From sequence record SRR31156797_381: 20,000 nucleotides of DNA; one strand, given 5' to 3'. The notes beneath the pieces are model-generated. The model did not search any database and had not been told where the DNA came from. It was given only the letters and a program-made list of their open reading frames with translations. This document shows positions 1,528-18,056 of this stretch, piece after piece (the stretch's first letter is position 1; each line of letters opens with the position of its first letter). The translations under genes and the position numbers were made by a program.

Positions 1528-1556
1528 TTGCTAATTCCTACATCCCATAGTATAAT
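1528..1556 (+). promoter_or_regulatory. Sigma-A promoter of the raiA-motif RNA
   Basis: TTGCTA (1528-1533), 17 nt spacer, TATAAT (1551-1556). The predicted start (about 1562-1564) coincides with the 5' end of the RNA's closing stem. Confidence 0.85.
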
Positions 1557-1563
1557 GAGTAGC

Positions 1564-1770
1564 ATCTTTGCAGGTCTGTGATTGAAAGTCGATGCTAGTC
1601 GCGGGCAAAACGATCCACATAAGCTGATAAAAATATCAGTGAGCATGGCGCGGTTTAGAGGTAAGTCCAGCCTTGGGAGACCAAGAGAGGTGAGGCGTGA
1701 TGGGAATACACCCTAAGCAAGACACTCAGCTGGCGGGTGTGGGGTCAAAAATCAGGTCAGCTGCAAAGAT
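1564..1770 (+). ncRNA. raiA motif RNA (large structured ncRNA, about 207 nt)
   Basis: GC-richer island closed by a perfect 10-bp stem, ATCTTTGCAG/CTGCAAAGAT. It carries, in order, the blocks I recognise from clostridial raiA-motif RNAs: TTGAAAGTCGATGC-AGTCGC, GGCAAAACGATCCAC-TAAG, TGAGCATGG-GCGG-TTAGA-GTAAGTCC-GCC, and GGCG-GTGTGGGGTCAAA-A-CAGGTCA. Internal hairpins are CTGATA-aaaa-TATCAG (1624-1639), CTTGG-GAGA-CCAAG (1672-1685, GNRA loop) and GGG-aataca-CCC (1702-1713). A T-rich tail follows (1771-1778). Confidence 0.93.
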
Positions 1771-1779
1771 TATTTTTTA

Positions 1780-2338
1780 TCAGTTTTTTATAGTCATTGA
1801 CTCACGTCTATTATACTCCCGCTCTAATAATGCATATTGATATGAGCTAAACCATAAAGGATTGCCATATTCATCTGCCTTAAAGAACATATTGTCAATC
1901 CTTGTGGCTTCTCTGCGAAAATTCACCCTCTCAAGCAATCTCCATGATGCCATATTCTCAGTATTGCAATATGCTATTATTCTGTGTGCTTTAAGTGAAT
2001 TAAATAAATAGTTTAACAGGCATATGACTGCTTCAGTTGCATACCCCTTGCCTTGGTAGTGCTTATTAAATACAAACCCTATCCCATATGTATCTACTTT
2101 TTCTGGAGTTATTTTATTAAAGTACAAGTTACCAATTAACTTGCCTGTACCCTTTAGACATACCACAATAAATGAAGGATTATCTGCCGGTTATCACTTC
2201 GTCCTCTGCCATATCCAAAGTAAATGGTTCATATGGCTCATATAGTACTACATCTGCGTCAGATAAATATTCATACAAATCATCTTTATCGCTGGACATA
2301 AATCTTCGGAGACTTAGACGCTTGCTTACTAATATCAT
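1780..2338 (-). pseudogene. RimJ/RimL-type GNAT acetyltransferase split by a frameshift near 2186-2193 (pseudogene or sequencing error)
   Basis: ATG at 2338 gives MILVSKRLSLRRFMSSDKDDLYEYLSDADVVLYEPYEPFTLDMAEDEVITGR* (stop 2180-2182), a typical RimJ N-terminus. The protein continues in another frame as ADNPSFIVVCLKGTGKLIG...YQGKGYATEA...NMASWRLLERVNF (ORF 1780-2166). Confidence 0.85.
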
Positions 2339-2370: not shown

Positions 2371-3114
2371 CTATTCTTTAGGCTTTCTCTTAATCTTATC
2401 CCACATTTTATATGTATGCGGTTTTTTAATCGCCAGCATAATATATTTCTGTGCATCATGGCCTTCAGCGAATTTATCCAAAAGCTTTATCAATTCTTTC
2501 ATATCCTGCCGTTTTGTTTCTCCGTCAGCTGGACATTGAGATTTGATAATTGGCAGACTATTTCGCTTCTGAGCGAGAATAACTTCCTTTTCTGAAGCAT
2601 ATATCATAGGACGTATCTGGGTAATATCTGCCCTGTCCATATATGTCAATGGTGCAAATGTATTCAGCCTGCCTTCATACAGCAATCCCATCAAAAACGT
2701 CTCAACTACATCATCTCTGTGATGCCCTAGTGCAATTTTATTAATATCATAACGCTTACAGACATCATGAATAGCACCCCTTCGCATCTTTGAGCACAAC
2801 GAGCAGGGATTCTTTTCCTGTCTGCTTTCAAAAACTACACTATAAATATTTGTCTTTTCCACATGATACGGGATATCCCATTCATCGCACAAATCCTGTA
2901 CAACCTGAGTATTCATATTCTCTTCTATTCCCATATCTATGGTTATTGCATGTAGTTCGAACTCGGCTTTGGAAAAATATCTAAACAGGTGCATTGCCTT
3001 TAGCAGCACCATGGAGTCTTTGCCGCCAGAAACCCCAACGGCAATTCTATCTCCATCTTGTATCATATCAAAGTCTTCAACTGCTCTCCTGATGCAGCTT
3101 AGAATATATCTCAT
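2371..3114 (-). CDS. ttcA: tRNA 2-thiocytidine(32) synthetase TtcA family protein
   Basis: PP-loop SGGKDS, CSLCSKMRRG, ALGHHRDD and IRPM motifs, plus a C-terminal Cys (CPADG). Confidence 0.88.
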   Translation of the reverse strand: MRYILSCIRRAVEDFDMIQDGDRIAVGVSGGKDSMVLLKAMHLFRYFSKAEFELHAITIDMGIEENMNTQVVQDLCDEWDIPYHVEKTNIYSVVFESRQEKNPCSLCSKMRRGAIHDVCKRYDINKIALGHHRDDVVETFLMGLLYEGRLNTFAPLTYMDRADITQIRPMIYASEKEVILAQKRNSLPIIKSQCPADGETKRQDMKELIKLLDKFAEGHDAQKYIMLAIKKPHTYKMWDKIKRKPKE

Positions 3115-10080: not shown

Positions 10081-10644
10081 TTGAGCATATTTGAATTAAT
10101 TGTAATATCTATAGCCCTTGCAATGGACTGTTTCAGCGTATCCATATCCTGTGGTCTGTGTGATATATATCATAAGAGAAGAACTGCCACCAGAGCAGGC
10201 TTATATTTTGGAACGTTCCAGGGATTAATGGTCCTGGGCGGTCTGTTAACTGCATCAACCTTTGCAAAATACATTGAACCTATTGACCACTGGGTAGCAT
10301 TCGTACTTCTTTGTTTTATCGGCGGCAAGATGATATATGAAGCATTCAATGAAGGCGAAGAAAGAGCAGATATGACTTCCACTAAATCCATGATAATACT
10401 GTCAATAGCAACCAGTATAGATGCATTTGCAGCTGGTATTGGATTGGCTGCAGTCAGTGCTCCAATTCTACTGTCAGTAATAATGGTTTTTTCAGCGTCT
10501 CTTATTCTGTCTTACTTTGGTGTACTAATTGGGTGCAGACTGTCAAAGAATAATCCTTCAAAACTCTTTGATGTATTAGGCGGAGTAATCCTGCTTATAA
10601 TTGGAACCAAAATACTCATTGAACACTTAATGCAGCATCAGTAG
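10081..10644 (+). CDS. mntP: Manganese efflux pump MntP family protein
   Basis: IALAMDCFSVS, FGTFQGLM, DHWVAFVLL..IGGKMI, IATSIDAFAAG and GGVILLIIG.KILIEH motifs; TTG start with SD GAGG. Confidence 0.93.
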   Translation: MSIFELIVISIALAMDCFSVSISCGLCDIYHKRRTATRAGLYFGTFQGLMVLGGLLTASTFAKYIEPIDHWVAFVLLCFIGGKMIYEAFNEGEERADMTSTKSMIILSIATSIDAFAAGIGLAAVSAPILLSVIMVFSASLILSYFGVLIGCRLSKNNPSKLFDVLGGVILLIIGTKILIEHLMQHQ

Positions 10645-16256: not shown

Positions 16257-18056
16257 TCATTCGTTAGTTTTAAACATCAATGTTACAGGAATATCATTAT
16301 TTTCAATGTTAAAAAAGCTCATGAGTATCATTTCATCAGAATCTATACCGTGGTATATTGCACCCGTAATCATATCCATCTCATAGCTTAATTTCTTAGT
16401 ATCTACATTATAATAGTATAGTGCAACAGGAAATTCATCTTCCCAGTCAATAACATTGTCCTGAGTAAAATATACTCCGGAACTATCCGAATTAAATGCA
16501 TACGCAACCACCATCTTATTATCAACGATTTTTGTCAGTTCTTTACTGTCTAAATCATATAAAAACAAAGAATTCATGCTGGCGTCGTCAGTAGGCATAT
16601 CATTTACTATCATCATTTTACCGTCATCAGATATCTTAAAGGAGTTGCCCTCTACAATGAATTCCTCCTCGCCACTTTCAATATTCAGTGCATAAATACC
16701 AACAAAAGCCCCATCATTATTTAGATAATAGATTTTTCCGTTCCGTACATAAAGCATTGATGCCATATGTACTGTATCATTAATGGATTTTGCTTCTATC
16801 TTTTTATATTTTATCTCGTAACAAATCAGATGTTTTATCTCACCCTCCCCAACAATTGCATACAAACAGTATCCATCCTCAGACCATGCAATACTTGAAA
16901 TATCACTACCGTAATCCAAATCCTGCACTTCTTTGACATCACCAGAAATACTGTCAATGATGTATAGCATACGATTTTCATTTTTTTGATCTATTAGGGC
17001 AATGTACCTGCTGTCATAGGAATAATCAGCAAAAGTAATTGATTCAAATTGCATATCAGTTATTTGTCTTTTTTCACTCTCAGAGCAAAACCACAATTGT
17101 TCATATGTTCTTATGCCGCTATCATCTTCCTCGACATAGTATTTAGCAAAAAGGTTTGCTGAAAAGTTACTATTCATTGATAAAAATCTGCCCTTACACA
17201 GAAGCTTATCAGCATAATGCATAGTCCCTTTCTCACCTATAGGTTCATCTATGATATCATCGATTTTGTAATCATAGCTGTATTTGGGAAGTGAATTGTA
17301 ATTAATATTGATGATATCAATTTCTTCAGTAAATAAACTCTCACCAATATTATTATCTAAATACTCCTGAGCATCTTCTGCGCTATCAAATGGTCCATTA
17401 AGCATTAAACTGTTTGTCAAATCATCGCATATACATGGATAAAAGTCCACCAGATTAAATTCACCAAGGGTGTATTCATAGAATTTATTTGCTGCTAAGT
17501 AGTATCCATCGGTTTGAATTGATGCTTTAGGTGAAAACTGTATAATCAATTTGTTCTTATTTTCTAAAACATTGTAGGTGTAATCATTTAAAGTGGAAAT
17601 ATATAAATAAACAGCTCCATCTACAGAAGTCTCCTGAAGCAAGATACCGGATATTACTTCACTTACTATACTTGAGTTCTGACTATCTGTATAAGAGACA
17701 GAATCTAATCCATCTATTTTTATAACCATTCTGTCTGCGCCGTCGATTCTAGATATAGAATACTGTGGTATTCCTTTCCTGCGTATAGATGTGGAAAACT
17801 CGCTTCCGTCATTATCCTCAAATGTTATTTGCAGTTCTTCAAGATTATCATCATTAACTAAGACAGTTACTGATTGTAAACCAAGATTATCTATGTCCCT
17901 GCCGCCTTCTACTACACTTTGCTCATCATAAGCAAACATAAACTCGCCCACATCAAGATTAACCTTTGTGTTTGTTTTGCAGGAAACAAAAGTCATAACA
18001 AGAATAATAGCACTAAGTGCTACTATAATAATTTTATTTAAATGCTTGTAGTTCAT
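16257..18056 (-). CDS. Hypothetical acidic lipoprotein with a probable C-terminal TolB/WD40-like beta-propeller
   Basis: Signal peptide with lipobox-like FVSC; repeated blade-like motifs YSYDSRYIA, WSEDGYCLY, ISDDGKMMI and FNSDSSGVYF. Confidence 0.7.
   Translation of the reverse strand: MNYKHLNKIIIVALSAIILVMTFVSCKTNTKVNLDVGEFMFAYDEQSVVEGGRDIDNLGLQSVTVLVNDDNLEELQITFEDNDGSEFSTSIRRKGIPQYSISRIDGADRMVIKIDGLDSVSYTDSQNSSIVSEVISGILLQETSVDGAVYLYISTLNDYTYNVLENKNKLIIQFSPKASIQTDGYYLAANKFYEYTLGEFNLVDFYPCICDDLTNSLMLNGPFDSAEDAQEYLDNNIGESLFTEEIDIININYNSLPKYSYDYKIDDIIDEPIGEKGTMHYADKLLCKGRFLSMNSNFSANLFAKYYVEEDDSGIRTYEQLWFCSESEKRQITDMQFESITFADYSYDSRYIALIDQKNENRMLYIIDSISGDVKEVQDLDYGSDISSIAWSEDGYCLYAIVGEGEIKHLICYEIKYKKIEAKSINDTVHMASMLYVRNGKIYYLNNDGAFVGIYALNIESGEEEFIVEGNSFKISDDGKMMIVNDMPTDDASMNSLFLYDLDSKELTKIVDNKMVVAYAFNSDSSGVYFTQDNVIDWEDEFPVALYYYNVDTKKLSYEMDMITGAIYHGIDSDEMILMSFFNIENNDIPVTLMFKTNE

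Follow-up and report, generated by a model that had tools for sequence, protein, structure and literature searches.

A stretch of higher GC content near the beginning of the 20,000-nt DNA analysed here (this whole stretch is called the window below) raises the question of which structured RNA it specifies, and whether such an RNA can be a gene of its own when no protein gene follows it on the same strand. The initial annotation had read it as a raiA-motif RNA with its own promoter. Judged from its sequence, the segment 1565–1769 on the plus strand is a raiA/ModT RNA gene of an uncultured member of the Clostridia. The best explanation as a whole, which we hold with high confidence, is that this gene has its own promoter, that its product is a trans-acting RNA, and that its position results from a lineage-specific relocation.

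We have searched the whole window with the covariance models of Rfam and obtained a sole match, one copy of the raiA motif RNA (RF03072) at 1565–1769 (+), with 176.3 bits and an E value of 3e-45; the gathering score of the family is 101.3 bits. The alignment spans model positions 1–209 of 209, and 53 of the 57 model pairs are canonical in this copy. The family had thus been named correctly from the start, since the match is full length and lies on the plus strand. The score also falls within the range (161.5–203.3 bits) of 18 of the 20 matches over the cut-off in a class sample of 151 Clostridia genomes, which further holds two shorter raiA copies with 139.9 bits (L031) and 119.4 bits (L032). 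The supposed GC-richer island is present too: the match itself has a GC content of 0.50 and the 200-nt windows over it range from 0.435 to 0.46, against ~0.33–0.38 in the flanks. According to a published rule, raiA RNA is normally found in single copy per genome, in Bacillota or Actinomycetota. The copy described here is a known family in a known type of context, and a routine Rfam scan annotates it. With a DNA signature taken from the variable parts of raiA, we have found two relatives among uncultured Clostridia, G156 (L034/L038) and G157 (L035/L039), with one raiA match apiece. The raiA RNA of the window is 92.5% identical to the copy of G156 and 90.2% identical to that of G157.

The names of the helices and the placement of the elements below are sequence-based and follow the text, not the figures, of the cryo-EM study of He 2026 (PMC12968392). 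Each core element of the architecture described in that text can be placed on the window copy:

1565–1769 (+): raiA-motif (ModT) RNA, 205 nt, full length, RF03072; subtype without P2 and with P7 and P8.
1564–1582 (+): 5' strands of P1 according to the Rfam model pairs, namely P1a 1565–1573 (plus A1564), pairing with 1761–1769; a GU bulge, 1574–1575; P1b 1576–1578, pairing with 1758–1760; and P1c 1579–1582, pairing with 1751–1754.
1584–1586 (+): GAA of the GAA(A) tetraloop-like junction J1, a placement inferred after PMC12968392; the fourth A would be A1748.
1588–1614 (+): P3 hairpin with P3a (1588–1591/1611–1614), P3b (1594–1596/1604–1606) and an A-rich internal loop.
1615–1619 (+): P4 5' strand, CCACA, with its partner at 1738–1742, as in the published P4.
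1623–1640 (+): P5 hairpin, 1623–1627/1636–1640 plus inner pairs, with an A-rich loop (Rfam model pairs).
1645–1664 (+): PK-L linker, with the PK2 strand 1645–1647, the PK1 strand 1649–1654 and an exposed 10-nt linker 1655–1664.
1667–1733 (+): P6 (1667–1671/1729–1733), P7 (1672–1676/1681–1685, GAGA loop) and P8 (1689–1692/1723–1726 plus inner pairs).
1738–1770 (+): 3' strands, namely P4 1738–1742, the PK2 linker of 8 nt 1743–1750, P1c 1751–1754, a GGU bulge 1755–1757, P1b 1758–1760 and P1a 1761–1769 (plus U1770).

The closing stem is perfect over 10 bp (1564–1573 with 1761–1770), as had been noticed before, and nine of these pairs belong to the Rfam model. The apical loop of P3 (1597–1603) is the loop that forms PK1, a pseudoknot of 6 bp (1598–1603/1649–1654), while PK2 consists of two Watson-Crick pairs (1646–1647/1746–1747). 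The exposed linker at 1655–1664 reads UUAGAGGUAA, which fits the UUAGA(N)GUAA that the published text places between PK1 and P6 (PMC12968392). Since P1c and P3a are just 5 nt apart, there is no P2, and this assigns the copy to the subtype of Clostridium acetobutylicum. The hairpin previously described as GNRA-capped is P7 with its GAGA loop. The P6 domain of raiA RNAs is either a simple hairpin or a P6-P7-P8 arrangement, often with an E-loop in P8. The 5' side of P8 in the window (1689–1700) carries GGCG instead of AGUA, the conserved E-loop sequence of the Rfam consensus. The same GGCG is found in G156, G157 and G001, the last being a genome of the order of G156, and so it looks like a P8 variant specific to this lineage.

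We have then compared the window copy with raiA RNAs of other Clostridia. The alignment (A1, made with MAFFT) contains 19 sequences: besides the window copy, it draws on 18 of the 20 loci with raiA from the 151-genome sample and leaves out L029 and L030, whose raiA loci have insertions of ~130 nt. In A1, pairing under the published architecture reaches 90.9%, whereas shuffles give 77.7% and slid partners 34–43%; 28 pairs have changed on both sides. Compensatory changes support most of the helices. P1a and P1b are 94.3% paired with such changes at 9 of 12 pairs, P3a and P3b are 100% paired and also show them, P5 is 96.8% paired (4 of 5 pairs with compensatory changes), and PK1 is 100% paired (5 of 6). 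P1c, P6 and PK2 are paired at 98.7%, 98.9% and 92.1%, respectively. For P4, which is 98.9% paired and nearly invariant, covariation neither supports nor contradicts the helix. The pairing counts of P7 and P8 are low because MAFFT misaligns these variable arms. Outside the helices, G20, A22 and A23 in the J1 region and the linker columns T92, A93, G94, G97, T98 and A100 are invariant. The window copy itself holds compensatory variants, namely a private P1a sequence, a G-C pair in PK1 where most copies have A-U, and A-U in PK2, for which the text on Ns-raiA gives G-C (PMC12968392). Sequence and covariation together show that the window RNA is able to form its P1 arm, the exposed linker and the conserved core made of P3a/P3b, P4, PK1 and PK2.

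Two long-range pairings suggested previously fared differently. The pairing of CCACA with UGUGG (1615–1619/1738–1742) stands, being the published helix P4, whereas it does not make an additional pseudoknot. The pairing of AUGCU with AGCAU is rejected: it is 75.8% paired in the 19 sequences, has zero compensatory changes and equals the shuffles, and its bases take part in P3b and PK2 instead. The minimum free energy fold of the plus strand over raiA is not significant against shuffles (z −1.67). Such a fold misses pseudoknots, and this outcome is what should be expected from a pseudoknotted RNA.

The transcription signals at the two ends of the RNA, as far as they can be predicted, are as follows:

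1528–1533 (+): −35 box TTGCTA of the predicted raiA promoter (promoter scan).
1551–1556 (+): −10 box TATAAT of the predicted raiA promoter (promoter scan).
1771–1790 (+): U-rich tract right after P1, the presumed 3' end (from the sequence).

The promoter-like site TTGCTA-17-TATAAT (1528–1556, +), which had been pointed out at the 5' end of raiA, shows 10 of 12 consensus matches and ends 8 nt before P1. Taken by itself, the promoter scan is at chance level in such AT-rich DNA, with 5 sites against 4.0 ± 2.0 in shuffles. When the window is aligned with G156 and G157, the three genomes are invariant in the −35 core ATTGC and in the 10-nt block ATAGTATAAT with TATAAT, while invariant columns number 0 in the 15-nt spacer and 8 of 37 further upstream. 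In 14 of 21 raiA loci, moreover, the best promoter-like pair has at least 9 of 12 matches with a −10 box ending 4–12 nt before P1, which is the same arrangement as that of the SigA promoter mapped for ModT, as reported in PMC11706538. That a promoter abutting P1 has been kept in two relatives supports independent transcription, and the predicted transcription start is at ~1562–1564.

At the other end, the noted T-tract consists of two parts, 1771–1778 and 1785–1790. A P1 that runs straight into a U-tract is also seen at L015, L020 and L027 and in G156 and G157, and a terminator scan of the window has found no separate hairpin past raiA. We infer that the transcript ends at P1 and the U-tract, which would give an RNA of ~212–227 nt. 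As a terminator, a stem of 10 bp around a domain of 185 nt would be atypical.

The neighbourhood of the RNA is built from genes on the opposite strand, the nearest of which are the following:

545–1468 (−): upstream neighbour in divergent orientation, encoding a protein of 307 aa whose C-terminal part holds a GNAT domain (Acetyltransf_7 and Acetyltransf_1, weak Pfam matches).
1780–2340 (−): convergent downstream neighbour, a broken RimJ/RimL-like GNAT gene (Pfam, three-frame translation).
2371–3114 (−): TtcA-like PP-loop gene, the first of a block shared with the relatives.

The 307-aa protein has no NCBIfam match, and its ~200 N-terminal residues are without any family; its relatives amount to two distant matches in genome contigs and none in metagenome contigs. 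In the broken GNAT gene, the C-terminal half lies at 1780–2166 and the N-terminal half is in another frame and ends in a stop; the Pfam match covers profile positions 58–138 only. This gene is either a pseudogene or an assembly error. Past it follows a minus-strand block of the TtcA-like PP-loop gene, two ABC exporters, HIT, KsgA and a G5/3D protein. A further ORF of 599 aa on this strand (16257–18056) has neither a Pfam match above threshold nor an NCBIfam match. On the plus strand, the first credible gene after raiA is MntP at 10081, 8.3 kb away, and all plus-strand ORFs of at least 60 aa between 1770 and 10081 are antisense inside Pfam-supported minus-strand genes or the broken GNAT gene. 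The next plus-strand gene, therefore, is indeed more than 8 kb away, as had been stated. Searches with Pfam and tblastn for hpf, comFC, FlgN and zf_Tbcl have found none of them in any frame of the 20 kb, the best tblastn match being a 33-aa zinc-ribbon-like piece (E 0.001). This is in line with the claim that no raiA/comFC gene is nearby; as the window holds just 1,564 nt upstream of the RNA, the absence of comFC covers gene positions −1 and −2 only.

The two relatives show that this position is not peculiar to the window. In G156 and G157, the TtcA-like/ABC/ABC/HIT/KsgA/G5 block is syntenic, with 46–74% protein identity (70–71% for the TtcA-like PP-loop protein) and the same order and orientation relative to raiA, and hpf and comFC lie on contigs other than that of raiA. 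Since raiA is found at the same block end in all three genomes, the relocation is a lineage trait and not an accident of one genome. The genes upstream of raiA differ among the window, G156 and G157, and the 307-aa GNAT gene is absent at the loci of both relatives. Downstream, the relatives carry thrB (TIGR00191, 243 bits) on the same strand as raiA, at L038:7997–9112 in G156 and L039:9063–10183 in G157. It begins ~15–30 nt after P1, with a spacer that is U-rich only, so that thrB is probably transcribed from the raiA promoter by read-through. Strict independence as a transcription unit thus fails for the lineage as a whole. In the window, thrB is replaced by the broken GNAT gene; no same-strand gene stands behind raiA there, and the window copy is more solitary than those of its relatives. 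Protein queries alone lead less close: those with PP-loop and KsgA reach relatives at only ~50% identity, and the loci found by the GNAT and PP-loop queries (L001–L006) carry no raiA. For the KsgA locus L007, raiA is 1.3 Mb away in its genome, G001. One of these loci, from an Acutalibacteraceae MAG, holds a Gut-1 RNA (RF01706, 60.4 bits, L005:87–161, −) that adjoins two tRNA genes.

How common is raiA RNA away from both hpf and comFC? For 887 genomes, Soares 2024 reports comFC upstream of the RNA in 74% and the raiA gene downstream in 66%, and describes a variable distance and orientation of the RNA to its neighbours (PMC10861870). We have counted neighbours within 1.5 kb of the RNA; because the loci are interrelated, the counts are descriptive only. 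Among the 20 loci of the class sample, comFC is upstream in 7, hpf is downstream in 14, and neither is present in 2. Among 32 loci from the order of G156 (G001 included), the corresponding numbers are 17, 9 and 15. Such a survey of orphan copies had been suggested with the first reading of this DNA, and it shows that raiA RNA apart from both genes is common in this order. The linkage to comFC and hpf is typical of the family, not defining, and its absence is no bar to membership. The solitary position is accordingly a common variant within the family and not a new type of element.

In the same order, another gene is frequently found behind the RNA. At 40 of 53 raiA matches in the order sample, a zf_Tbcl domain match on the same strand starts 33–53 nt past the RNA (L040–L068, e.g. 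L040:1709–1790), and in the class sample, too, this gene is present, at 8 of 20 raiA loci. It encodes a double zinc finger protein (PF13451 and PF23477, TIGR04272) of ~95 aa that starts with MYEDKTL.C.DCG. The spacer between raiA and zf_Tbcl has a strong Shine-Dalgarno sequence, little else and no obvious promoter. One genome, G258, has two raiA matches (C41:327–531 and C18:48671–48920), each followed by a zf_Tbcl gene; this conflicts with the published single-copy rule and may reflect either a true duplication of the pair or a MAG of mixed origin. A comparison of the zf_Tbcl sequence with solved structures has given only spurious Cys-rich matches. The adjacency of raiA and zf_Tbcl is not mentioned in the main text of Soares 2024 (PMC10861870) or in the literature searched.

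From this adjacency, one may think of the raiA of the order as the promoter-proximal half of a two-part unit, in which P1 and the U-tract would be a leaky terminator metering the ORF and zf_Tbcl a possible protein partner of raiA. A separate promoter does not fit in front of an ORF that starts a few tens of nucleotides past P1, as zf_Tbcl does at the 40 of 53 matches and thrB does in G156 and G157. On this view, the window would hold a natural derivative that has no ORF and in which the RNA has been kept for itself. Co-occurrence seems at first to favour a partnership, with zf_Tbcl in 51 of 52 raiA-positive but 30 of 69 raiA-negative genomes of the order sample when relatedness is ignored. In the class sample, however, zf_Tbcl is present in 98 of 151 genomes and raiA is over the cut-off in only 20. 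Hence zf_Tbcl as a raiA-specific partner by co-occurrence has been rejected, as the protein is widespread without raiA, and the adjacency may for this reason be inherited synteny. We regard the two-part unit as a tentative idea with a rather low chance of being right.

A rival explanation would take the RNA as a cis-acting leader, a riboswitch or attenuator, for the downstream gene. The Rfam entry RF03072 is still typed 'Cis-reg; riboswitch', P1 with its U-tract resembles a terminator before an ORF, and the short distances from the RNA to thrB in the two relatives (U-rich spacer only) and to zf_Tbcl in the order could be read in this way. In the window, however, no plus-strand gene follows for 8.3 kb and the adjacent gene is convergent and broken, and yet the RNA and its promoter are still fully conserved. 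In addition, deletion phenotypes of raiA are complemented in trans, as reported in PMC10861870 and PMC11706538, and the variable distance and orientation of neighbours described by Soares 2024 (PMC10861870) speak against such a leader. A cis leader is ruled out for the window copy by the gene map, which agrees with the earlier assertion that a 5'-UTR switch is impossible here, and as a general explanation it is very unlikely; an added role in those relatives where an ORF abuts the RNA is conceivable.

We give slightly less credit still to a role on the minus strand, where the segment would be a roadblock, a terminator or an antisense target for the GNAT and RuvC genes that flank it on the minus strand. 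The two neighbours do have this orientation, the start of the 307-aa GNAT gene is 60 nt from the raiA promoter, and there is a weak minus-strand promoter-like site at 1797–1769; but the covariance model scores the plus strand only, the minus-strand fold over raiA is no better than shuffles (z −1.49), and the flanking minus-strand genes are not conserved beside raiA in G156 and G157. Least credible of all is a decaying non-functional relic of a rearrangement: the RNA does sit at a synteny break, with upstream genes that differ in three genomes and a broken downstream neighbour, but its 176 bits are in the range of the copies of other genomes, it retains 53 of the 57 pairs, its promoter boxes are likewise conserved, all 63 invariant columns of A1 are kept (though so by construction), and the RNA is 90–92% identical to those of its relatives while the neighbouring proteins reach 46–74%.

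The raiA/ModT gene of the window, with its proposed own promoter and trans-acting product, can be compared with the closest known systems. One of these is Ca-raiA of Clostridium acetobutylicum (204 nt, against 205 nt in the window), which we have compared through the description in the published texts and the Rfam model. It belongs to the same family and subtype, with no P2, a short P7 and a P8 arm (PMC10861870, PMC12968392), and as far as these texts describe it, it has in common with the window copy P1a/b/c with bulges, the GAA(A), P3a/b, P4, PK1, PK2 and the UUAGA(N)GUAA. The contexts differ: Ca-raiA is reported to lie after comFC and before gntR, whereas the window copy lies between two minus-strand GNAT genes, has no comFC within 1.56 kb upstream, and departs from the E-loop consensus on the 5' side of P8.

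Another is ModT of Clostridioides difficile 630, for which the published account gives a single sigma-A promoter directly upstream, action in trans and no hpf downstream (PMC11706538). Its short form of ~215 nt resembles in length the transcript predicted for the window. According to the same source, a second ModT isoform of 260 nt ends at a separate terminator hairpin, whereas none is found at the window raiA; ModT still follows comFC, and it is for ModT that expression, stability and a link to c-di-GMP are demonstrated (PMC11706538). The copies in G156 and G157 share the promoter boxes, P1 with its U-tract and the position at the block end, and are likewise unlinked from hpf and comFC; they differ from the window in having thrB on the same strand after raiA instead of a broken GNAT gene on the opposite strand, and in their upstream genes.

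The following course of events may be proposed for the window copy. The RNA would be transcribed from its own sigma-A-type promoter at 1528–1556, starting at about 1562–1564, and transcription would end in the U-rich tract behind the 10-bp P1, giving roughly 212–227 nt. By analogy with the studied members, it may be a trans-acting structured RNA that is stable and abundant. KhpA-KhpB is reported to bind raiA RNA at ~2 µM, with the linker proposed as the binding site (PMC12968392); the window RNA would probably form a ribonucleoprotein with these proteins on its exposed UUAGAGGUAA linker. It may also influence sporulation and the passage from growth into stationary phase, as carried over from the studied members. 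Its position, where the TtcA-like/ABC/ABC/HIT/KsgA/G5 block ends and without linkage to hpf or comFC, is a relocation specific to the lineage.

What does the finding mean? The significance given to it in the initial annotation is overstated, since both Soares 2024 and Lence 2024 describe the raiA RNA as a trans-acting, independent transcript with a SigA promoter and variable neighbourhoods, so that trans action and separate transcription are already established for the family (PMC10861870, PMC11706538). For annotation, the window adds one more routine ncRNA gene missed by ORF-based pipelines. The adjacency to zf_Tbcl, fixed at 33–53 nt in most genomes of the order, is the only part able to yield a new experiment. 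For the family, the three related genomes offer a natural case in which raiA and its promoter are intact though unlinked from hpf and comFC, and the solitary copy of the window agrees with the published view of a trans-acting RNA whose function can hardly be read from the genes beside it.
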